DNA of 64,000 nucleotides from Candidatus Poribacteria bacterium (GTDB taxonomy: Bacteria > Poribacteria > WGA-4E > JAJDTR01). Position numbers and translations under genes: made by a program. Below, one piece after another: positions 50,537 through 62,738 of this stretch. Each line of letters opens with the position of its first letter. The first letter of the stretch is position 1. The stretch covers positions 4,680,643-4,744,642 of the forward strand of contig CBDCTK010000002.1 of NCBI GenBank assembly GCA_965222225.1, written 5' to 3'. Under the pieces are notes generated by a model. It ran no database searches, was not told where the DNA came from, and worked only from the letters and a program-made list of their open reading frames with translations.

Positions 50537-53500
50537 TTATGCTGCCCAACGCTCCGACAAAACTTCGGCTTGCTCCAAGACGGTTTCAGCGGCTTTAGCT
50601 TGTTTATCGGGTGGATAGCCGTATTTCCGCAGAATTCGCTTCACCAATCGGCGCAGGTTGGCGCGGACGCTCTCCTTCATCGTCCAGTCGATGGTCACGT
50701 TGTTTCGGACAGTTTTCACAAGTTCAGCCGCAATAGTGCACAAGGTCTCATCTCCCAACACTTGCACGGCGCTGTCGTTGGTCTCAAGTGCGTCGTAGAA
50801 CGCCAATTCATCGCTCGAAAGCCCCAACTCCTCGCCGCGCTCTACCGCCTCACGCAACTCCCTTGCTGTTTGGATAAGCTCCTCAATCACCTGCGCGGCT
50901 TCTATTGTCCGGTTTTGATAAGCGCGAATTGATTGTTCCAACATCTCCGCGAATGACCGCGATCTTACGACATTCTGCCGTGAATGCGTCTTGATTTCAT
51001 CGTTGAGCAACTTATCCAAGAGTTCGACTGCCAGGTTCCTTTGCGGTAAGTCCCGCACCTCCGCGAGGAATTCGTCGGAAAGAACTGAGATATCGGGCTT
51101 CTCCAATCCGGCGGCGGCAAAGATGTCAACCACCCCTTCGGGAACGACAGCTCTTGATACCAACTGCTTGATTGCCAGGTCCGCCGCCTCGGACTGCGTT
51201 TCTTCTCTAGCCGTCAGCTTTTCCAAGACACCGCGCACCGCTTGGAAAAAGGCGACATCGTCGCGGATTTCAATTGCCCTTTCGTGCGGCACTACTAGCG
51301 AAAAGGCTTTGGAGAGCGCAGTGACCTCATTCAGTAGGCGGGTTTTGCCATCTTCCAAGCCCAAGATATGCTCTTGAGCGGCGGGCAGTAGCCTGAGGCG
51401 TTCCTCGGTGTTTCCGTCATCCCACGACGACCAATCTAATCCGTGGAACAGCCCACAGCAGATTTCGTGTTTTTCCATCATTACGGCAATGGCTTCGGCT
51501 TTATCAATGGATGGCTCCCCTTTTCCTCCGCTGTCAGTGTAGTCCGCCAATGCTCGCTTGAGATGGTAGCCAATCCCGATATAGTCCACAATAAGACCAC
51601 CGGGCTTTTCGCCGAAGACGCGATTGACGCGCGCGATGGCTTGCATAAGGGTGTGACCTCGCATCGGCTTGTCAACATACATCGTGTGAAGGCTAGGCGC
51701 ATCAAATCCGGTCAGCCACATGTCGCGGACAATCACAAACTTCAACGCATCATCGGGATTCTTGAACCGAACCGCCAGCTCTTCGCGCCGCGCTTTGTTG
51801 CGGATATGCGGTTGCCACGACTCGTCCTCCGACGCTTCGCCCGTCATTACAACCTTAATAATCCCCTGCGTGTCCTCCTCATCATGCCAACCCGGACGCC
51901 TTTCCACAATGGCGTTGTAGAGATCGACGCAGATACGGCGGCTCATGCAGACCACCATCGCTTTGCCGTCCATCGCATCCAACCGCTCCTCGAAATGCGT
52001 GATGATGTCATCGGCAACCAGAGCCAGACGCTTCTCCGTTCCGACCAGTGCCTCAAGTTGAGCCCATTTGGATTTGAGTCGCTCCTTGTGCCTTTCCTCC
52101 TCCCCTTCGGTCACCTCCTCAAATTCCGGGTCAACATGGGGCTTCTCGTTCTCGTCCAGCTCAATTTTGGCGAGTCGGCTCTCGTAGTAGATTCGGACAG
52201 TGGCACCGTCATCAACCGCTTGTTGGATATCATAGATGCTGATGTAGTCTCCGAATACGTTTCGGGTGTTGCGGTCCGTTCCCTCAATCGGGGTGCCGGT
52301 AAAACCGATAAATGAGGCGTTCGGAAGCGCGTCGCGCATGTGACGGGCAAATCCGTCAATAAAATCATACTGGCTGCGGTGGGCTTCGTCCGCAATGACC
52401 ACAATGTTCCGTCGATCGGGCAGTTCAGGCAAGCGGAGTTCTTCATCTTCGGGAAAGAACTTCTGCACCGTGGTAAAAACTACACCGCCCGAAGCAACTC
52501 TCAAGAGTTCGCGCAAATGTCCCCTGTCTCGCGCTTGTTCCGGCGTTTGTCGCAAGAGTTGGCTGCACCGAGCGAACGTACCGAACAGTTGATCGTCCAA
52601 ATCGTTGCGGTCGGTAATGACGACCAGTGTCGGGTTTCGCATCTCCGGGCGCCGGATGATACCCCCGGCGTAGAATGCCATAGTCAGGCTTTTGCCCGAA
52701 CCTTGCGTGTGCCAGATAACGCCGCAGCGTTTGTCCCCGTCTGGGCGCGACGCCTTCACGGTAGCATCGACCGCCGCTCTAACGGCGTGGAATTGGTGAT
52801 AACCGGCAATCTTCTTGGCAATCGTATCGCCTCCCGTTTCCTCAAAGACAATGAAATGACTAAGATAGTTTAGGAACCGCTCCTTGTCAAAGAGGCCCTT
52901 GATTGTTACCTCAATTTCCGGATCTGTTGATGCGGCTTCCGTTTCTCCCTCAATTGTTCGCCACGGCATGAACCGCTCCCGATCCGCCGTCAAAGAGCCG
53001 ACGCGGGCCTCCACCCCGTCGGAAACAACAAGCGCCTCGTTATACGTGAACAGCCGCGGAATTTCCCGCTTGTAGGTCTGAAGTTGGCGAAAAGCGGACC
53101 ACACGGTGGCGTTCTCGTCGGTCGGATTTTTGAGTTCAATCACGCCTAACGGGAGTCCGTTTACAAACAACACGATATCCGGTCGGCGTTCACTATTTTC
53201 CACGACGGTGAACTGGTTAACCGCCAGCCAGTCGTTGTTTTCGGGACTATCGAAATCCAACAACTGCACACGGTCACCGTGCATTGTGCCGTCGGAATCC
53301 CGATATTCGACCTCTATGCCATCAACCAACATGAGGTGAAATGTCCGATTGTTTTGAAACAATGAGGGGGAGTTTGGAGAATGGACTTTTTGAACGGCTT
53401 CCTCTTGCGATACGGCGGGGATGTTCGGATTCAGGCGGCCAACCGCATCGCGCAAACGACGCTCTAGCACCACGTCCTCGTATCTTGAGCGTTCAGCATC

Positions 53501-53605
53501 GGAAGTGTCCGGGCCGATGTCGGGACCGTGCAAGACGGAATAACCCATACCAGCGAGCCAATTCAGTGCGGCTGTTTCGATGTCGGATTCGGTGATGCTA
53601 TTCAT
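50537..53605 (-). CDS. hsdR: Type I restriction enzyme R subunit (endonuclease/helicase)
   Basis: N-terminal PD-(D/E)xK nuclease region, SF2 helicase motifs (GSGKSLTM Walker A; DEAH in …[10 protein letters not shown]…), 1022 aa, and the typical HsdR C-terminal helical domain. Confidence 0.9.
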
Positions 53606-53655
53606 TGATTCTTGACGTTCAGTATTATTGCTAACGGTTTATTTTTGTAAGAGGG

Positions 53656-54893
53656 TTAATGTGACGAGTTAACATGAAGGCTTTCACCCTGTATTGGACC
53701 ACCTGAATTGGTCAACGGATCCCCAACCTCAAAGAAACCCTCCATCCAGAGGTGTCCTAACTTCCCTCCTGTCTCCATGAATTGATGAATTCCGCGCATG
53801 TCCACCGTGCGTTTGCAAACCGTAAACCCCTCCTCATCTCGATACAGTACCCACACCTCGTCGGCGTGGAGCTCGTTGATAAAATAAGGAAATGGGTAGT
53901 AATCATGAGTTGAGACGAGGCTGACGCCCCACGGCACTCGTCTGTCAAACTAGGCAACAACCGTGGATGTAAGTGATTTTCAGGTTCTCCAATACCGATA
54001 AAGGGGGCAGGCTCTGGATCATGTAGCAGCGTGAGATACGAAAGCAACTTTAACGTGCCCTCCGAGGTAAACTTCGCCAAGATGGATTGCTCAAACGGTG
54101 CATCTTTTATCTGCAACAACAAGCGACCATCCGCCATCAGTTCTGCGTCTACCTTTTCTAGTCGTGGCACCTGATTTGACATAATTGAGAGAATCTTTCG
54201 CAAACGGCTTGGGTGCTGTTCTTTCAAATACTGGATAACGTTCGCCAGATTGTCTCCTGTTTCTGAAAGCTGCTCTCGCGGCCCCGTTGCTTCAACTCCG
54301 CGTGTGGCATCAATGGAAAGATGGGAGAGATGCCAGCCAGTAATGAAACGACGAAGGGGCCCAAGACGTGGGTAGCGCGACAATTGGCCAAGAGTGCTCG
54401 CAGCAAGTGTTGACGAATCATCAAACTGTTCATCGGTTTGCTCCGCTTCCTCATCTGGCATTTCACCCGCGATGACTCGTCCTGCGCCGTGACGAAAATC
54501 AAGAAAACGAAACGGCTTCCCCCGATTGCCGCGCCGCCAACTCATCCATTCGGATTCCACAAAGGGGCCCTGTACTCCTTCATCAATGGCTAGATGATAG
54601 GTGATAATTGGCATTCCCGGTTTCTCACGATATTTCAAATCAAATTCAATTGCTCCATCACTTCCCCGTGTTCGCAGATGCTTAAACCGCCCTCTTTTAT
54701 CCCAGGCACGGCGCAATCCGATTGTGAAACATTCGGAGAGAAACGCAAATACATCAAGTAGCGTGGACTTTCCACTGCCATTGGGACCCGAGAAGACTGA
54801 AAGCGGCGTTATTTTTCGTAATTGCACATCCCGCAGAGAGCGGTAATCTTTCACGCGTAATGACTCAATGCGGGGAACGGTTTGTTGCAGCAT
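53656..54893 (-). CDS. ABC-type AAA ATPase (AAA_15/AAA_21-like, OLD/abortive-infection-type); split by an apparent frameshift near 53890
   Basis: Start ATG 54893 (MLQQTVPRIESLRVKDYRSLRDV…). Walker A SGPNGSGKST, Walker B/D-loop …FIGIGEPENHLHP…, and the H-loop …SQLMITTH. The sequence then continues in another frame as (S)PYFINELHADEVWVLYRDEEG… (ORF 53656..53937), matching the usual TTHSPxLL…EVWVL continuation of this family. Confidence 0.6.
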
Positions 54894-54936
54894 CTGAATT
54901 GCCTCTATGGCTACCCTGACATGGCGACTATTTGTT

Positions 54937-56052
54937 TTACCCCTGTTGCGGCGTAGTATAGCGAGCAACAAATTTGCTACTGTCAATATCCGGCTGTCCT
55001 TGTCGGGCATAGAAGGAGGAGAAGCGCGCGACAATATCCTTTACAAAGAAAGGCGAAATCTGGATTGAGGGTTTTTCAAACTTTTCGTCGAATTCGTTTT
55101 TAGTCAGCGCGTTCATTTTTCTGAAATTAAGAAACCCACCGTCAAAAAAATCTGTTTTCGGCAACCAGTGGTAGTAAAATGTGTAATTGTTGTTGAATAC
55201 CGCCTTGAGTGTTTCTTTCGTCTTCTCCCTTTTCCTCTTCTCGTCGCGCATCCTCTTAACACTAACCAATGCCTTGTCTACAATATGATTTTCTTTTTCA
55301 ATCTCAACGAGGAGAATACGATCTGTCCTGAATTCACCGTTACTTTTGAAAACGAGATCGCACGCCGGACTCAACACCACGAAAGGCTGATCGCTCGTCT
55401 CGTCTTTCACAATACTCCCGGTTGTGATATTGCTCGACAACGGTGGATGGAGGTAGACCTCTTCTGGAAAACACCGTTCGTCACCTTCCTCAAGCAGTTG
55501 AAATAAGTGATTCAAGGTGTATCGGAGAAGAGCCTTTTCGGTTCGCTCTGAATCTTCTTTTCCATAAGAAATCCAGGTTTGTATCTGTGACCGAAGGTTT
55601 TTGAGAAAAACTTCATTTAGTCGCTGTTCGATTAGTCCTCTGCCACCCATGATGTGGGTTAATCCCGTATCAAAAATCTCCCAAAATCGGTCTAGAAGTT
55701 CGTCATACCGAGTTTTCCCTTTTTGGAAAACGCTAAGGAGCATGATTTTTTTATTCAAAGTGTAATCTGAATTGCCCGGGTTTGCCGTAAATATGGCAAT
55801 TGGAATGCGGAAAAACGACTCTTCGATCTTTTTGATAACCTGATTCCCCTCATCACCTTCATTCGCTAGTTTTAAATCGATAATCGCACCATCAAAAGAG
55901 TTGTCCAACAGTTCTAATGCTTTATCAAGAGTTTTGCATCCAACCGGTTCAATATCTCGATTCTTTTCATCAACGTATCTTTCCACAGAATCCTTGCACG
56001 CCTCAAGATCTTGTTCGTCGTCTTCCACGATTAGCAACCGTAACTTGCTCAT
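54937..56052 (-). CDS. Receiver (REC) domain protein with an uncharacterised ~250-aa C-terminal domain (candidate effector)
   Basis: N-terminal CheY-like receiver: acidic pocket LLIVEDDE, phospho-acceptor Asp in …DGAIIDLKL…, and a conserved T/K (…IAIFTANPG…). Residues ~120-371 carry no motif I recognise. The start ATG overlaps the upstream kinase stop (ATGA). Confidence 0.6.
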   Translation of the reverse strand: MSKLRLLIVEDDEQDLEACKDSVERYVDEKNRDIEPVGCKTLDKALELLDNSFDGAIIDLKLANEGDEGNQVIKKIEESFFRIPIAIFTANPGNSDYTLNKKIMLLSVFQKGKTRYDELLDRFWEIFDTGLTHIMGGRGLIEQRLNEVFLKNLRSQIQTWISYGKEDSERTEKALLRYTLNHLFQLLEEGDERCFPEEVYLHPPLSSNITTGSIVKDETSDQPFVVLSPACDLVFKSNGEFRTDRILLVEIEKENHIVDKALVSVKRMRDEKRKREKTKETLKAVFNNNYTFYYHWLPKTDFFDGGFLNFRKMNALTKNEFDEKFEKPSIQISPFFVKDIVARFSSFYARQGQPDIDSSKFVARYTTPQQG

Positions 56053-58226
56053 TTACCATTCTCCATCTTGGGCTGAAGTCTGAAATAGGCGCCTTCATCG
56101 GACTCAAAGGCTTTCAACTCAAGACCGTTTCGCTCTGCGGCTTCAGAGGCTATCGCCAGCCCAAGCCCCGTTCCGTCCGGTTTGGTGGAAAACTCAGGTT
56201 CAAAGATGACTTCATTTTCGATGAGGCTCGGTTCAATTCCCGGTCCGCTATCTCGATAGTCAATATGGGACAGAGAGTTACCATCGGTCACGAGTTCGAT
56301 TTTAATTTGCCGTTTGGTTCCTTTCTTTTGGCTCATCCAATAAAGACTGTTGTCGATAAGATTTGTGAAAACCACGTAGATGTCTTGAGACCAAGCGGAG
56401 AATTTAAAGCTGTCAGTACCTCTGATTTCGGTAGATACATCTTCGGATTTCATCTCGTTTTCAAAAACTGAGAGAGTATTCTCTATTGTCTTCTTCAACT
56501 CCAGTGGTTTTTTGGCGGCACGTTTTCCCGCGGCTAGTGGATTAAGTCTTCCGAAGAGTTTCACGAAAATCTCCATATTTTCCTCAACACCATCGGCAAT
56601 CGACAGCATTTTTTCAAGTTTTCCCAGATCCCCGGTTTCCTGAAATCTTTCTCTCCAGTATCTGAGATTCGGTATTTGGTTCCGAAAGTAGCTGAGCGGT
56701 TGGCTGCCTTCATGGACTATGACATTAAGGATTTTCCCTAGAGTGGCTTGCCCTTGGTAAACCCTAAGAGCTTGCCTGATTTCATTAGCATCCCTGCCCT
56801 TATCTTTTTCTACCTGGCCAACGATTTCAATAATTCGATCGATGGTTGGTTGATTGCACCCATCTTCGGTGAGTTGCCTCCGTATGTTCCGTTTCAACGC
56901 ATCAAAGGAGAAAAGCCGTCCCAGCTCCCGTTCCACCTTGATAGCAGGCCGACTCAATCCTGCTTTTCTTCTGTACTCATAACGCCGCCTTTCCAGTTGC
57001 CTGATGACCGCCAGTGTGACTTCCTTCAGCCGATTGAACGCCTCATTCTCTTTAAGCCCGTCCCGAGCGCTTTTTTCCTCCAAGCCGGACCACTCGACCG
57101 AATCAATGTGCACATATCCTATGACTTGATTGTTAGCAATACAGAGTGACGGATTCTGTACGCGTCTCGCGTTCAGTTTCAACCAGTCAAAATCGGCATC
57201 GCCAAGCGGTCGGATGCGGAAGCCGTTCCGATAAACGCCGATACCGTTGTATGCATTCAGAAGCTGTCTCGCCTGATTTTTCCCGACATAGTTGCCCGAT
57301 TCCTCCTTTAGTCCTCGTCCAATCAAAGATTCAATGGCATCGTTGTCGCGGTCATACACACAGATTTCAATTTGAAACTCGCCGCAGCCAGTAGAATTTT
57401 CAAAATCAAATGACACTTCCTCCCTTATATCAAAGTCGATCTGTACGTCGGGAACGTTACGGGCTTTCTGTGATGAGTACGTCAGAAAACCTTTACCATT
57501 TTTTCCGATGTTCCCCGAGATCCTGTAGTCATAGAGATCGAAAAGTAAATAGGGTTCGATCTCTTTCTCAAAGTCCTCCACGCCCGGAAAACCCCGAACT
57601 TTCAAGTTTATACGAAATTCATCATCCTTAAAGACGCTACTCACAGGTGATTTTAGTTTCTTCAACTCAAACTGGAGCTCCTCAAACCGTTTCTGATCCC
57701 ATTCGGCGAGAAGCTGATTATTTCCATTGATGGTCAGTCGTGTGCCTGGTGACTCCGATACCTTCGTTGTTTCAATGGGAATTCCCACGTCATCTAGATA
57801 TTCAGCAGACTCGAATTTGTTCCATTCAAAAGATGCCGTAGTTTTCTCTCCTTCTGGAGTCACAGTTTCGAAAAACAAATCTGTGCCGAGAATGGATGCC
57901 GCATACCGTCCCACACCCTTATTTCCTTGCATTACCCTTCCCCCACGACTGATGCGTTTGTCAAATTTGTCCCGCGTTGACGGCACCATCCATTTGTCGA
58001 TGACATCGTCCCTCGACATCCCGTGACCGTGATCTGAGATAATGATAGAATATCCACTGCGAGTAGGAGATTTCTTGAATTCCACCTGCACATCCGGAGA
58101 GTCTGCATCATACGCGTTTTTTACGAGTTCGACAACAGCCGCAGAATTGTCGTGAATTAGGTCTTTTCCGATAGTCAGAACGTGCCGCCCCGCGGGCCTA
58201 ATTTTATGAGTTGTATTGGCGTTCAT
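56049..58226 (-). CDS. Cytoplasmic histidine-kinase-like protein with an additional N-terminal Hsp90/MutL/MORC-type GHKL ATPase module
   Basis: N-terminus (start ATG 58226, GAGGAGG RBS): GHKL N-box/G-boxes …AVVELVKNAYDA…, …IIISDHGHGMS…, …GNKGVGRYAAS…. The middle has an H-box-like VHEGSQPLSYF. The C-terminus is a canonical HATPase_c: N-box NLIDNSLYW, G1 DSGPGI, G2 GTGLGLAI. No TM helices. Confidence 0.6.
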   Translation of the reverse strand: MNANTTHKIRPAGRHVLTIGKDLIHDNSAAVVELVKNAYDADSPDVQVEFKKSPTRSGYSIIISDHGHGMSRDDVIDKWMVPSTRDKFDKRISRGGRVMQGNKGVGRYAASILGTDLFFETVTPEGEKTTASFEWNKFESAEYLDDVGIPIETTKVSESPGTRLTINGNNQLLAEWDQKRFEELQFELKKLKSPVSSVFKDDEFRINLKVRGFPGVEDFEKEIEPYLLFDLYDYRISGNIGKNGKGFLTYSSQKARNVPDVQIDFDIREEVSFDFENSTGCGEFQIEICVYDRDNDAIESLIGRGLKEESGNYVGKNQARQLLNAYNGIGVYRNGFRIRPLGDADFDWLKLNARRVQNPSLCIANNQVIGYVHIDSVEWSGLEEKSARDGLKENEAFNRLKEVTLAVIRQLERRRYEYRRKAGLSRPAIKVERELGRLFSFDALKRNIRRQLTEDGCNQPTIDRIIEIVGQVEKDKGRDANEIRQALRVYQGQATLGKILNVIVHEGSQPLSYFRNQIPNLRYWRERFQETGDLGKLEKMLSIADGVEENMEIFVKLFGRLNPLAAGKRAAKKPLELKKTIENTLSVFENEMKSEDVSTEIRGTDSFKFSAWSQDIYVVFTNLIDNSLYWMSQKKGTKRQIKIELVTDGNSLSHIDYRDSGPGIEPSLIENEVIFEPEFSTKPDGTGLGLAIASEAAERNGLELKAFESDEGAYFRLQPKMENGK

Positions 58227-58389
58227 AACTGATTGCCTCCTCTTTTCCGCGGTGTTTAATCCCATGAGGTTTAGTCCGTAGCACAAACGATTGAAAAGTC
58301 AATTTGCTTGAATGCCGGCTGAATCATACCGTGAACGTATCTAGAGATTAAGAAATGATGCAGGGACTAGATACACCAAACAGCGGAGA

Positions 58390-59403
58390 TTATATCAAGT
58401 CAAAGAGATGCTGATGCGTAATTTCCGTATGGAACCAAGCTCCATAGGCACTGCGCAACCAGATTTCGGACGTACGAATCCAATCTCTCCAAGCATGCTC
58501 CATTTGTGCACGTTCCACATTCAAGACGCTCCAGAGCATCGGCAGCGACTGCGGCTTCTGAATTAGTAGAGAAATCGCACGTTGGTTTACTTCGGTGCCC
58601 TCAGACACAAATGTCAACGGAATCTCCAAGTAGGGATTGAAATTTGAGGGTAGACTTTCCTCATTGCCTGAAGCAATGTTTGCCGCTAGTTCATGAATAT
58701 GCAGTGCCAGATAATACGCAACTAGTGAAGCACGGTATTCAAATTCATCGCCGAATATGTGTGATAACCACTCCCATCCTGGCCTTTCATACGCTCCGGC
58801 CAAATATTTCCAACCTTTTACGCAATTTCCACCAGAATTACCACTAATCGACTCGGCGTACCCCCTTAATTCACTTCTTTGCCATAGATAAAGGTGCTTT
58901 GATGCATCTGCAACAGGAATCTTCGTTCGTGCAAGATCTAGGGCAAGGTCGAGTTGACCTGTTAACAGGCTAAGCCCTCCGTGGAGACTGTGGTAGACAT
59001 ACCCTAGTACATCAGGAATGTTAGACCATGTTGTGTTACTAGTACGGTTCCATCCCGGGATGTTCATCAAATCATAAATCAAAGACTTTTGATCCTTAAG
59101 TTCCTCTTTGCAGGATTCAACTCCCATTAAGGCAACAGAAATTAAGGGGGAGATGACATTGACGCCACCGTCTACAATCTGAAACAACTTCTCGAAATCC
59201 GGTTCTTGTCCATCCAACTCCCTTTCTCGCCATTTTACCAAGGCTTTGAGCACACTTGGTTTAATTCGTTTCATGAGTTGACGCCACCCAAGCACATCTC
59301 CCGCACGAGCAAGTTCAAATGCTACTGAATAAGCGTCGGATGCCGATTCAACGCACTCCGGGATTTCAGGTAATTGGGCGAAGATTTTAGGATATTCATC
59401 CAT
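58390..59403 (-). CDS. Hypothetical protein (337 aa) in the hsdS-hsdR insert
   Basis: Predicted all-helical protein with no recognised family. It has a C-terminal R-x4-H (…ERAQMEHAW…) reminiscent of HEPN-type signatures, but this is weak. Confidence 0.35.
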   Translation of the reverse strand: MDEYPKIFAQLPEIPECVESASDAYSVAFELARAGDVLGWRQLMKRIKPSVLKALVKWRERELDGQEPDFEKLFQIVDGGVNVISPLISVALMGVESCKEELKDQKSLIYDLMNIPGWNRTSNTTWSNIPDVLGYVYHSLHGGLSLLTGQLDLALDLARTKIPVADASKHLYLWQRSELRGYAESISGNSGGNCVKGWKYLAGAYERPGWEWLSHIFGDEFEYRASLVAYYLALHIHELAANIASGNEESLPSNFNPYLEIPLTFVSEGTEVNQRAISLLIQKPQSLPMLWSVLNVERAQMEHAWRDWIRTSEIWLRSAYGAWFHTEITHQHLFDLI

Positions 59404-59470
59404 TTTTTGTCTCCAATGTCATACGGATATAAACCGCCTAAGTTTAAACGTCATGCAAAAGCCGAAAAAG

Positions 59471-59731
59471 TCAATCAACGTGAATCTCCCCTGACAAAAG
59501 TTTCGGCAGCAGTGCCTCTCGAATTTGGGAAAGAGTGTGTGATTGATGAATGTTTTCGATAATTCTCCCAATGAGTGGTCGTATTAAATCGCTGTATTTT
59601 TGAGCGATTTCAAGTTGGGGCAGCACGAATTCATACTTTGACATGTCTCTCCAATTGGTTCGTGGCATTCTTGTACCCGTGGAATGAGCGTCAGTATAAG
59701 CAACGAATTCGTCACAGGACACAATCCCCAA
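59471..59731 (-). pseudogene. hsdS: Detached 3' fragment of hsdS (end of the second target-recognition domain plus the conserved C-terminal helix)
   Basis: …SQIREALLPKLLSGEIHVD is the conserved HsdS C-terminal coiled-coil motif. It is in a different frame from the main hsdS ORF and separated from it by ~185 nt. Confidence 0.5.
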
Positions 59732-59916
59732 AACAACATCGAACCATTCTGATTTAATCGGCTGGACAACTAGAATGTCGGTTGAGCAAACCCCATCGGT
59801 CGGCGCAACGCCGACCTTGTGAAAATAAGGTCGAAGTTTCCCAAAGAGGATTTCACCCTTTCTGAATCGAGATTTATTGCTGCCGATTCCGTCGGCAGTT
59901 TGCCATTCAGAGAGAG

Positions 59917-61131
59917 CTATACTCCGCTTGACATATGCTCTAATCCGATATAAACGTCGCTTGAGTCGATTTGGTTAACGTTTGCACTACGTCGAACATT
60001 TTGTGCAATTTCTCCGAGTGTTCCAACCTCCCACCCCTCCGGAATCTTCCCCAACGGCGAATCTTGAAAAGCAGAAGGGAATATGGTGGCGGTTTCCGCG
60101 TCCATGCCAACGGGCTCCCGCCCCTCCATCTTTGCCCGCACGGGATCTAAATCCACAAACCACGACTTGAAGATTGCCTTTGCCATCGCCTCCAGCGTCT
60201 CGTTCATCTGCCGATTAAGTTCGATCTTGTCGTCAAGTGAGCCTAGGATGTTGGCAATCCGGCGTTGCTCAGGAAGAGGTGGTAATGCAACAAGAAAAGA
60301 TTCAATGTGCGCTTTGGTAAGCGCTTTTCTTGTCCCTCCAGAATCGTGACCTAGCACGTAGGCTTTAACCCGCGGAGCACTCAAGTATTTTTGAAGGAAA
60401 GTGCTATTTAACCTATCAGAAGTTCGTATAACGGCAACATGTTGATTCACTCTCGCTGGTAGGGTCCATTTTGGAACAACGCAGCAACGAGCAACTGAAT
60501 CTCCTGTGATGTTCAAAAGCACATCATCTTCTTGTATATCTACCCGCCGTAATTTATATGCTGCAGATTCATCAATGTGGGCTAATCCATCTCTACTGAA
60601 TTCATGATCGTAGACGTTTTGGCTACGGATCAAACTCACTCCTTCCGATTTATAGACGTTCTTCCCGCCTCTAGGCGTCGCGCCAGTGCTTATAAATGAC
60701 GTTACGTCCGCTAAACGAACAACCTCCCAACCGGTAGGCGGCGCTCCTAGGGGTAGTGATTTTAACAATAGCTCATTTATTTTGGCACTTTGATTCTGGG
60801 TATTTTTTGAATTCGTGCATTCACCTGCAGTCTTCGCTTGGCGTATTACCTCATATTCCTCAGCAATCACGTGCTTGAACCCATCTGATAGCACATGCCA
60901 ATCTAACACATCAACCCGAATTGGAAGGTCGGATTCCTCGAATGCCTCTTTCAACTGACGCATGCGCCTTAGGCTGAACGGCTCACTACCGACAACTGCA
61001 AGATCTAGGTCTGAATAATCCTTTGCTGTCCATGTCATCCGTGATCCATAGGCGCGAACCTCGCATTCGGGGGCATGTTCCGTCAGTATGCGTTGAACTG
61101 TTTCAAGATATTTGGGATTAAGGTCAATCAT
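59917..61131 (-). CDS. hsdS: Type I R-M specificity subunit HsdS (truncated in TRD2) with an in-frame N-terminal MNT-type nucleotidyltransferase domain
   Basis: aa 1-98 are a minimal nucleotidyltransferase (…[24 protein letters not shown]…VDVLDWH…). From ~aa 120 it is HsdS (…[18 protein letters not shown]…, central conserved …[44 protein letters not shown]…). It ends ~45 aa into the second TRD. The start overlaps the hsdM stop (ATGA). Confidence 0.65.
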
Positions 61132-62738
61132 TGTGTGCTTTTATGCCCGAACATTCTCAGACTATGCCCAATTGCCTCGTCCTGTCGTCTTGCCTCTGCC
61201 ATCTGATCCGCCAGTCGTTCCGTCAAGAGGGCTATTTTCTCCTCAAACGGCTCGTCATCGTCCTCCTGAGCCTCGGCGCCGACGTAACGTCCGGGGGTCA
61301 ACACATTTCCGTGCTCGTGTATCTCTTCCAAGCTGGTGCTCTTGCAGAAACCCGGGATGTCCGAATATTCACCCGCTCCCTCGTCGCTGCGCCAAGCGTG
61401 ATAGGTGCTGGCAATGCGGGTTACGTCTTCTTCACTGAGTTCCCGGTGCACACGGTCAATCATGGCGCCGAGTTTCCGGGCGTCAATGAACAGCGTTTCC
61501 TTCCTCCGCTTTCGAAAACGAGAATCCTCTTTATTTCGAGCGAGAAACCAAAGGCACACGGGTATCTGCGTCGAATAGAACAGTTGCCCCGGCATCGCGA
61601 CCATGCAATCGACCAAGTCGGCTTCAATGATATTCTTGCGGATTTCGCCCTCGCTGGTAGTGTTGGAACTCATCGAACCGTTTGCCAGCACGAATCCGGC
61701 GATGCCATCGGGCGCGAGGTGATGGATGAAGTGTTGTACCCACGCAAAGTTGGCGTTTCCTGTTGGAGGCACCCCGTAAACCCAGCGCCTGTCCTCACGC
61801 AGTCGCTCGCCTCCCCAGTCGCTGCTATTGAACGGCGGATTGGCGAGGATGTAATCAACTTTCAGGTCGGGATGAAGTTCGCGGTGAAAACTATCGGCGT
61901 GCTCAACCCCAAGATTGGCGTCAATGCCGCGAATGGCGAGGTTCATCTGCGCCAGTTGCCAAGTGGTCGGGTTGGACTCCTGTCCGAAGATTGAGATATC
62001 GTCGCGTCCTCCGCCGTGCGCTTCAACAAAGGCTTCACTTTGGACGAACATGCCGCCCGACCCACAGCACGGGTCGTGCACTCGTCCTTTGTAGGGCGCA
62101 AGCATCTCCACCAGCACCCCCACCACGCAGCGTGGCGTGTAGAACTGGCCGCCTCTCTTGCCTTCTGCGCTGGCAAATTGTGAGAGAAAGTATTCGTAAA
62201 CCCTACCCAAGATGTCCTTCGATCGATTCTCCTCCTCTCCCAAACCGATTGTGCCAATCAGGTCAACTAGCTCGCCAAAGCGACGTTTGTCAAGCATCGG
62301 GCGGGCGAAGTTCTTTGGCAGAACACCTTTAAGACGAGGGTTCTCTCCTTCAATGGCACCCATGGCTTTGTCAACTAGCGTGCCTATTTCCGGTGTTTTG
62401 GCGCGGGCTTGCAGATAGGACCAGCGTGCTTCTGTCGGGACGTAGAAGATGTTTTCCGCAAGGTATTCATCTCGGTCTTCCACAAACTCGTAACGAAAGG
62501 ATTCTTCTTCAAGATAATATTCACTCTCAGAATTAGCGGATTGTTTAAGTAGAAAAGCGTGTCGTTCCTCAAAACGGTCCGAGATGTACTTGAGGAAAAT
62601 CAACCCCAATACGACGTGTTTGTATTCCGCGGCATCAAGATTGTTGCGGAGCTTGTCGGCGGCTTGCCACAAGGTGGCTTCAAAACCGAGCGTCGCCCCG
62701 TTTCCGTTTGGTTTTGACTTTCTCTTGTTTCTTGCCAT
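61128..62738 (-). CDS. hsdM: Type I R-M N6-adenine DNA methyltransferase subunit
   Basis: HsdM N-terminal helical domain, SAM motif I (…[13 protein letters not shown]…), and catalytic motif IV NPPF (…[14 protein letters not shown]…); 536 aa. Confidence 0.9.

Follow-up and report, generated by a model that had tools for sequence, protein, structure and literature searches.

What does a response regulator do when its receiver domain is joined to a stretch in which no known output domain can be recognised? This question is raised by a gene located in a 64-kb (64,000-nucleotide, nt) stretch of DNA, here called the window, from Candidatus Poribacteria bacterium (assembly GCA_965222225.1, contig CBDCTK010000002.1, positions 4,680,643 to 4,744,642 of the forward strand). 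The gene, which we call REC-X, lies at 54937..56052 of the window on the minus strand and encodes a protein of 371 amino acids (aa). The first-pass annotation of the window had claimed that 54940..55692, corresponding to residues 121-371 of this protein, encodes an uncharacterised domain fused to a receiver, a candidate phosphorylation-gated effector. According to our analysis, REC-X and a neighbouring kinase gene might form a self-contained phosphorelay in the cytoplasm, in which REC-X is the response regulator and acts as a phosphorylation-gated effector with a toxin fold. We give this interpretation a probability of about 0.5.

REC-X and its partner kinase

The REC-X protein begins with a receiver (REC) domain encoded at 55708..56052 of the minus strand (residues 1-115), in which D59 is the phospho-acceptor. 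The Pfam model Response_reg matches the N-terminal 115 or so residues below its threshold (E 1.2e-3, 19.4 bits, cutoff 30.2). The residues of the phosphorylation site are kept throughout the family: D11 in 96%, D59 in 100%, T/S89 in 99%, and K/R111 in 99% of 117 sequences. This set, to which the conservation values of REC-X given below also refer, consists of the window protein and, at 29-57% identity to it, 116 representatives of the family. As in the RR-like (response regulator-like) proteins described in PMC8011034, the cryptic (beta-alpha)5 receiver keeps the acidic pair, the phospho-Asp, the Thr, and the Lys. The REC domain of the 371-aa protein is divergent but complete and, judged by these residues, predicted to be phosphorylation-competent.

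The gene immediately upstream of REC-X encodes a cytoplasmic histidine kinase (56049..58286, minus strand), as assigned by Pfam domains, motifs, and adjacency. Its open reading frame (ORF) comprises 745 aa, with the likely ATG start codon at 58226, and its stop codon overlaps the start of REC-X by 4 nt (ATGA). According to Pfam, the kinase is composed of an N-terminal MORC-like GHKL module (HATPase_c_3), a conserved middle block, an H-box/DHp segment, and a C-terminal HATPase_c domain. The motifs ELVKNAYDAD, DxGHGM, and GxKGxGRYA of the GHKL module are intact. The middle block contains the strongly conserved motifs NGxGVYRNGFRIRPLGD..FDW and EKSARDGL. The H-box reads TLGKI..V..HE...PL (VHE...PL), and the HATPase_c domain is canonical, with N, G1, and G2 boxes. 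Conservation of the kinase motifs is 95% or higher in 68 orthologues, and solved histidine kinases of the PDB align to residues 510-737, the DHp segment included. Sequence features of this kind point to a competent soluble kinase that is translationally coupled to REC-X, and the two genes almost certainly form a two-component pair.

The GHKL module of the kinase is also matched by restriction-enzyme models, namely REase_II of PADLOC (9.5e-8) and BbrUII/HgiDII of NCBIfam (2.5e-13). These models cover the N-terminal GHKL module only, and not the rest of the kinase. A similar label, “RM_Type_II REase”, is given to the kinase AbrB in a table of the preprint describing the Ambrosia system (bioRxiv 10.1101/2025.09.30.679545). 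It is likely that automated tools mislabel such kinases as restriction enzymes.

The C-terminal domain and its predicted fold

The search for REC-X homologues returned 1631 proteins at E<=1e-3, the best 120 of which are 58-93% identical over the full length. In an exhaustive search, the C-terminal 251 residues fell into 699 clusters at 50% identity. The match to this part begins at about residue 115-130 of 340-390-aa proteins in nearly all of the top 150, so that the fusion with REC is essentially fixed. Against the closest relatives, the ratio of nonsynonymous to synonymous substitutions (dN/dS) of REC-X is 0.19-0.26, with 0.18-0.27 for the REC and C-terminal parts, similar to the values of hsdR and hsdM in the same genomic island. 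Both domains of REC-X are under purifying selection. The homologues, the clusters, and dN/dS exclude a chance ORF; the C-terminal domain is a real constrained unit.

No significant match to residues 116-371 or so was found in Pfam, NCBIfam, or PADLOC, also at permissive thresholds (E<=10), which agrees with the earlier statement that residues 121-371 hold no recognisable output domain. YaeQ, the best Pfam match for residues 121-371 (E 0.02-0.03, below the cutoff), and other marginal matches were dismissed as noise. A PDB sequence-profile search of the C-terminal domain returned RNase R only (E 0.011), which covers the beta-rich stretch and was judged not meaningful. The peptides RYDELLDRFWEIFDTGLTHIMGGRGLIEQRLNEVF, NNNYTFYYHWLPKTDFFDGGFLNFRK, and FVARYTTPQQG, quoted in the first-pass annotation, are all present in the 371-aa translation. 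The enrichment in Lys/Glu and aromatic residues pointed out there is true and mild: K+E account for 16.7% versus 12.0% in the long ORFs of the window, and F+W+Y for 12.7% versus 8.4%. The same annotation had held that a confident match to a DNA-binding or benign metabolic output domain would speak against an effector; the Pfam and NCBIfam searches revealed no HTH or other DNA-binding family.

In the AlphaFold2 (AF2) model of the protein, helix alpha-5 of REC is followed by a Gly-rich segment, a hairpin, and a beta-rich region (residues 205-350 or so) that finishes in a long helix. The C-terminal 255 or so residues make up a single conserved unit, in which a barrel comes after the helical hairpin. 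For the strands of the barrel, the predicted local distance difference test (pLDDT) score is 78-93. For the fold searches a model of the C-terminal domain only was used, with a barrel pLDDT of 81-91. The top 50 Foldseek matches of this model were 49 MazF-type proteins and CptN, at a probability of 0.99-1.00. The matches to the toxin superfamily had E values of 1e-3 to 3e-2 and template modelling (TM) scores of 0.46-0.70, normalised by target. The arrangement that characterises the MazF/PemK/CcdB superfamily, an SH3-like barrel with a C-terminal helix, is present in the model. The C-terminal domain of REC-X thus very probably adopts the MazF/Kid/CcdB toxin fold. Structure prediction and fold search had been proposed in the first-pass annotation as a check, and the modelled toxin fold is the opposite of a benign or DNA-binding domain.

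Four parts can be distinguished in the domain. The helical hairpin region (residues 116-200 or so; 55453..55707, minus strand), delimited by the AF2 helices and by conservation, carries the Gly-rich motif TGLTxIMGGRGxIE, W160, R177, and E198xY200. Its AF2 helices comprise residues 116-128, 131-135, 140-166, and 168-188, the two-helix hairpin itself being residues 140-188, and G130, G139, W160, R177, and E198 are conserved at 97-99%. The beta-barrel (residues 201-349 or so; 55006..55452, minus strand), which is assigned the MazF/Kid/CcdB fold on the model, has invariant residues specific to the family. P229 and C231 are conserved at 100% (C231 in 117/117 sequences), D232 at 97%, H295 at 91% (107/117), and N/D309 at 97% (114/117), while P298, F310, K338, R343, and the motif R350-Q-G-Q-P354 lie in the range of 94-100%. 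A variable helical insert rich in Lys, Arg, and Glu (residues 253-290 or so; 55183..55296, minus strand) separates barrel strands 3 and 4; its length differs between homologues, and AF2 places helices at residues 254-261, 263-266, and 271-286. The C-terminal tail (54940..55005, minus strand) contains the R350-Q-G-Q-P354 motif, with R350, G352, and P354 conserved at 100% and Q351 at 99%; its pLDDT is below 50 in both models.

A separate observation concerns the metagenomic protein P0151 (571 aa), in which a truncated C5 methylase is joined directly to the C-terminal domain, without kinase and without REC. It represents either a chimera formed by deletion or a rare variant without the gate.

Distribution and genomic context of the pair

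The genomic context was assessed in 80 loci obtained from a scan of 185,579 species genomes. The hosts include Poribacteria (nearest, 80% identity), Latescibacterota, Desulfobacterota, Chloroflexota, Bacteroidota, Chlorobi, Spirochaetes, Gamma- and Alphaproteobacteria, Nitrospirota, Yersinia, and one Methanoperedenaceae archaeon. The kinase gene is located directly upstream of REC-X in 79/80 loci, covering more than 15 named bacterial lineages and the archaeon; the sole locus without an adjoining kinase is a 3.9-kb contig. A C5 cytosine methylase gene precedes the kinase in 56/72 loci and usually overlaps the kinase start. Downstream of REC-X, Vsr is encoded in 23/75 loci, an N6/N4 methylase in 9, and HsdR in 6, and an HNH_2 gene is found upstream in 2/72 loci only. 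No REC-X homologues were detected in 50,697 phage genomes and only 2 in IMG/VR, and none were found in complete Escherichia coli genomes when Yersinia or Enterobacter DNA was used as the query.

Distant copies with 26-47% identity are carried on plasmids, including 39 records of Campylobacter jejuni plasmids, a Bacillus plasmid, and an Enterobacter plasmid. A dcm gene lies near the Bacillus copy, and the Enterobacter copy adjoins a gene with an AbiJ domain. The association with a methylase persists in other gene orders, as seen on the Bacillus plasmid and on the C. jejuni conjugative plasmid that was inspected. On the latter (CP120305; 5017-9228 of the extracted locus L086), the pair shows 26% identity and is accompanied by a convergent dcm gene, with vapD and a recombinase gene nearby.

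In three loci (L063, L023, L070), the trio of methylase, kinase, and REC-X genes is inserted between hsdS and hsdR of a type I restriction-modification (R-M) locus. This is the site that the pair occupies in the window. The module can therefore be regarded as mobile cargo of an hsdS-hsdR hotspot from which the methylase can be lost.

Comparison with described systems

The protein family has been described before, as an R-M-associated two-component-like pair that was left unexplained, and this limits the novelty of the finding. In the computational study of Bellieny-Rabelo, Pretorius and Moleleki (2021; PMC8011034), HK-like (histidine kinase-like) proteins with HATPase_c_3, HEF_HK, and HATPase_c domains were described together with RR-like proteins carrying Response_reg_2 and “no other known domain”. 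The linkage between the two was 91.6%, with a C5 methylase upstream, Vsr downstream, and an enrichment of R-M genes. REC-X and its kinase match this pair by architecture, linkage, context, and taxa. In both cases a soluble kinase with HATPase_c_3, a DHp containing the His-Glu pair, and HATPase_c is encoded beside a cryptic-REC protein. The C5 methylase upstream, the Vsr downstream, the type I/II R-M context, and a linkage above 90% are common to both families, as are the taxa Yersinia, Chlorobi, Geobacter, and Bacteroidetes. The window copy differs in being without C5 methylase and Vsr, yet it lies within a type I R-M locus. The models PF19192 (Response_reg_2) and PF19191 (HEF_HK) gave no match at E<=10 in a scan of the window proteins, seven homologues, the isolated H-box region, and the AbrC protein of Ambrosia, and are possibly missing from the Pfam copy used; REC-X and its kinase are assigned to the described pair through architecture and context. 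In PMC8011034 only the REC-like and DHp-like parts were defined, and neither fold nor role was assigned to the C-terminal domain of about 255 aa; none of the later literature using the RR-like/HK-like names addresses function. The description of the domain as uncharacterised thus holds for the C-terminal part, which that study left so, and not for the family itself, which was already described there. The C-terminal fold assignment, the sensor shared with Ambrosia, and the methylase-less variant embedded in a type I locus are new within the searchable literature.

Ambrosia is an anti-phage system validated in P. aeruginosa. It consists of the XRE regulator AbrR, the N6 methylase AbrA, the HATPase kinase AbrB, the REC protein AbrC (209 aa), and the HNH protein AbrD, and mutations of the Asn in GHKL and of the Asp in REC abolish its defence activity (10.1101/2025.09.30.679545). 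The module described here resembles it in the AbrB-type kinase (747 vs 745 aa, with the same domain order), in the adjacent REC partner, and in the linkage to a DNA methylase. In a BLASTP comparison with the N-terminal 399 aa of AbrB, residues 27-413 of the kinase aligned collinearly with 28% identity over 387 residues (E 9e-33). In contrast, AbrC is composed of REC and a short helical tail described as a winged helix-turn-helix (HTH), has no MazF-fold domain, and shows no BLASTP similarity to REC-X. Ambrosia further differs in having a separate HNH protein as the predicted nuclease component, together with the XRE regulator and the N6 methylase; no HNH or XRE gene adjoins the pair in the window. 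The two systems share a sensor family and differ in output, an HNH protein acting in trans versus a MazF-fold domain in cis.

In Detocs (bioRxiv 10.1101/2023.01.24.525353), REC-fused, kinase-gated effectors can be toxic immune effectors. The logic of that system, in which a kinase signals to a REC-fused effector and a toxic domain replaces the DNA-binding output, is the one proposed for our module. The phospho-acceptor Asp is required in Detocs, and the effector domains are swappable. The module differs from Detocs in having no DtcB “buffer” receiver gene, in carrying a MORC-like GHKL module instead of the TPR sensor of the kinase DtcA, and in its strong linkage to methylases. REC-X differs from DtcC in its MazF-fold domain, which takes the place of the PNP ATP nucleosidase, and no PADLOC model matches it.

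In the HgiDII/BbrUII-type restriction enzymes and the paraMORC ATPases of R-M loci (Iyer, Abhiman & Aravind 2008, PMC2292703), as in the kinase, a HATPase_c_3 GHKL module forms the N-terminus and is linked to a cognate C5 methylase. In the kinase this module is fused to a histidine-kinase core rather than to a nuclease, and the output is provided by a separate REC-fused protein.

The type I R-M island of the window

In the window the pair is part of a partly decayed type I R-M locus with the gene order hsdM, hsdS, unk337, kinase, REC-X, HEC-01A ATPase, hsdR, all on the minus strand. The two closest relatives, L088 (93%) and L089 (88%), show the same synteny with intact neighbours. The hsdM gene is found at 61128..62738. 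The hsdS gene (59471..61131) is fused to a nucleotidyltransferase domain and contains one frameshift near 59917-59925. The domain is located at the N-terminus (Polbeta/NTP_transf_2, Pfam 1.9e-8), and an intact 535-aa form of the protein is encoded in L089. The frameshift may be an assembly error or mark a pseudogene. The hsdR gene at 50537..53605 was assigned through the HsdR Pfam domains of its counterparts in L088/L089 and through 90-91% identity to loci L001/L002. Between hsdR and REC-X, a frameshift near 53900 divides the gene for a HEC-01A-type AAA_15/AAA_21 ATPase (53656..55034) into two overlapping ORFs, of which the first matches the PADLOC model HEC-01A at E 3e-128 and the second at 2e-20. 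The gene is intact in L088 (443 aa) and absent in L089. The gene unk337 (58390..59403), the island neighbour on the other side of the pair, is a derivative of a 505-aa TIR/SEFIR protein that has lost its TIR domain. An in-frame internal deletion removed residues 9-176 or so, with the whole TIR domain, and left the first 8 codons; the 505-aa form is found in L088, L089, and L001. The C-terminal 330-aa domain of unk337 matched no family. The gene is probably separate from, or accessory to, the pair.

A further gene, with SLFN_AlbA_2 and HATPase_c_4 domains, is inserted between hsdM and hsdS in L088 (2788-4542) and L089 (2648-4408) and is absent from the corresponding site of the window at about 61130. 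The type I R-M locus acts as a hotspot for variable cargo. Synonymous divergence (dS) between the window island (50537..62738) and L088 is mosaic, with 0.13 for REC-X, 0.19-0.22 for hsdM/hsdR, 0.63 for the kinase, and 1.6 for unk337, which suggests recombination swapping the genes on the sensor side. The promoter and terminator scan was no better than chance, with 8 promoter-like sites versus 8.7 expected and 4 terminator-like sites versus 6.0 expected.

Proposed mechanism and alternative explanations

We propose that the kinase recognises foreign or unmodified DNA through its GHKL/middle region, a role presumed for the GHKL module of HgiDII/BbrUII-type enzymes. The kinase would then autophosphorylate on the H-box histidine and pass the phosphate to D59 of REC-X. 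Phosphorylation of REC might alter the dimer geometry via the helical hairpin, MazF-type toxins being active as dimers. The MazF-fold domain would thereby be switched on as an effector, which would most likely bind or cut nucleic acid (RNA or single-stranded DNA) or otherwise arrest growth. The module would then be a restriction-like system, with His-Asp signalling to a toxin-fold effector in place of cleavage in cis, and the gate formed by REC and the kinase would stand in for an antitoxin. Where a companion methylase is present, it would mark self, and Vsr would repair the damage caused by deamination of 5-methylcytosine.

A role of REC-X in defence, or as an effector, is slightly favoured. 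The claim of phosphorylation gating made in the first-pass annotation gains from the competent REC domain, the adjacent coupled kinase, the R-M and defence neighbourhood, the predicted toxin fold, the homology to AbrB, and the Detocs precedent. On the other side, the catalytic Arg and Thr of MazF are not kept, and the usual methylase is missing from the window. These are among a number of observations that weigh against a toxin-fold effector. The mean pLDDT of the domain-only model behind the fold searches is just 71. The two most invariant motifs, PxCD and RQGQP, fall in the two loops modelled with the lowest confidence, as might be expected for an active site or an interface. No sequence relationship to MazF/PemK/CcdB was detected: Pfam gave none at E<=10, the PDB profile search returned no MazF, and hhalign against a profile of MazF/Kid/EndoA sequences validated against the PDB gave a probability of 0.5%, pairing only “QPFVVLSPA” with “RPAVVLSPF”. 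The equivalent of R29 of MazF is residue 222, which varies between K, E, Q, S, and N, and the region equivalent to T52 contains E250 and E252, conserved at 50% and 55% only, in a register inferred from strand order. The authors of the Ambrosia preprint favour transcriptional control by their response regulator (10.1101/2025.09.30.679545). In the window, three neighbours of the pair (hsdS, the HEC-01A ATPase gene, and unk337) are damaged, and neither a C5 methylase, which an R-M-like logic needs, nor Vsr is encoded within the 64 kb.

Homology to MazF at the sequence level was therefore rejected on the hhalign result, and the link to MazF holds at the level of the fold only. It is from the modelled fold that the label “toxin” is taken for REC-X. 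MazF/PemK/Kid, CcdB, and ToxN/CptN have no sequence homology to REC-X, and the antitoxin gene that accompanies such toxins is missing: no small antitoxin-like ORF is conserved beside REC-X in the genome loci, where the gene is flanked by those for the kinase, a methylase, or Vsr. REC-X also differs from MazF-type toxins in its fusion to REC and the hairpin, in its insert of about 35 aa, and in invariant Cys, Asp, His, and RQGQP residues of its own. Its chemistry is predicted to differ from that of MazF, with C231, D232, H295, N/D309, K338, R343, and RQGQP defining a different putative active or binding site. RNA cleavage of the MazF kind specifically is doubtful.

A non-toxic, regulatory output of the C-terminal domain seems unlikely. 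In such a scheme the phosphorylated protein would bind DNA or a partner and control the neighbouring methylase, Vsr, or restriction genes. Response regulators are mostly transcription factors, two-component control of R-M expression is discussed both in PMC8011034 and in the Ambrosia preprint (10.1101/2025.09.30.679545), Ambrosia reporter genes are induced upon infection, and the basic K/R-rich insert of REC-X could bind nucleic acid. However, no HTH or other DNA-binding family was detected in REC-X, its fold matches are toxins rather than transcription factors, and the invariant Cys, His, Asp, and Arg look enzymatic. Furthermore, the pair is constant while its neighbours vary (C5 methylase, N6/N4 methylase, HsdR, TIR, or none), which fits a self-contained module better.

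In another scheme the domain is an effector but, instead of a nuclease, a cysteine-dependent enzyme of peptidase, amidase, or transferase type that uses C231, H295, and N/D309 on a barrel resembling MazF. For such an enzyme the fold matches are much weaker than those to MazF and have a high root-mean-square deviation, and C231 lies in a loop of the model, whereas papain-like folds have the Cys at a helix N-terminus. Although C231, H295, and N/D309 are highly conserved and follow the Cys..His..Asn/Asp order typical of papain-like enzymes, we regard this explanation as rather improbable.

A true DNA endonuclease would make the C-terminal domain the “R” subunit of a restriction system linked to a methylase, activated by phosphorylation and cutting unmodified DNA. 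The operon logic of methylase, X, and Vsr resembles type II R-M, most operons are without another nuclease, and the separate HNH protein of Ambrosia fills the slot that an in-cis nuclease would take here. The window protein even contains a PD..ExE(K)-like string, PACD232...VE250IE252K, but its E250 and E252 are poorly conserved, as given above, and its Lys is not conserved. No restriction-endonuclease fold is found among the fold matches, and proteins with the MazF fold are known to cleave RNA or poison gyrase but are not known to cut double-stranded DNA. Membership of the PD-(D/E)xK superfamily, suggested by the string “PACD...VEIEK”, was rejected on conservation and fold, and a DNA endonuclease is improbable.

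That the window module is a non-functional remnant in a decaying defence island, as the frameshifts in hsdS and the HEC-01A ATPase gene, the TIR deletion in the upstream gene, and the 64 kb without C5 methylase or Vsr might imply, is very improbable, since the kinase and REC-X are intact, full-length, have all motifs, and are under purifying selection (dN/dS 0.14-0.27 for both genes, similar to hsdR and hsdM), the methylase-less arrangement is kept in at least 7 related Poribacteria-type loci, and the frameshifts could be assembly errors.

Implications

A phosphorylation-gated effector with a toxin fold might belong to a new kind of restriction-like immunity, which we put forward as a tentative and rather doubtful model. 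In it, a MORC-like GHKL sensor would recognise unmodified or foreign DNA and, rather than cleaving it, signal through a His-Asp phosphorelay to a MazF-fold effector with its own, hitherto undescribed Cys/Asp/His/RQGQP active site, the REC/kinase gate would replace the antitoxin, and the methylase would mark self. In the lineage studied here, the system would operate methylase-free inside a type I R-M island.

The module is widespread, with at least 1631 matching proteins and 699 C-terminal clusters, and its hosts extend from Poribacteria to an archaeon and to plasmids of Campylobacter. In the output of existing tools, its kinase carries the label of a type II restriction enzyme. For Ambrosia it offers a natural comparison, with the same sensor family and a different output, and the C. 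jejuni plasmid version of the pair could serve as a tractable experimental model. The analysis also offers a concrete hypothesis of what the RR-like proteins described in 2021 (PMC8011034) may do. If the proposal is true, the module joins methylation-based self-marking, two-component signalling, and toxin-antitoxin-type effectors, which are usually studied apart, and a toxin-fold domain with new chemistry would be added to the list of immune effectors.

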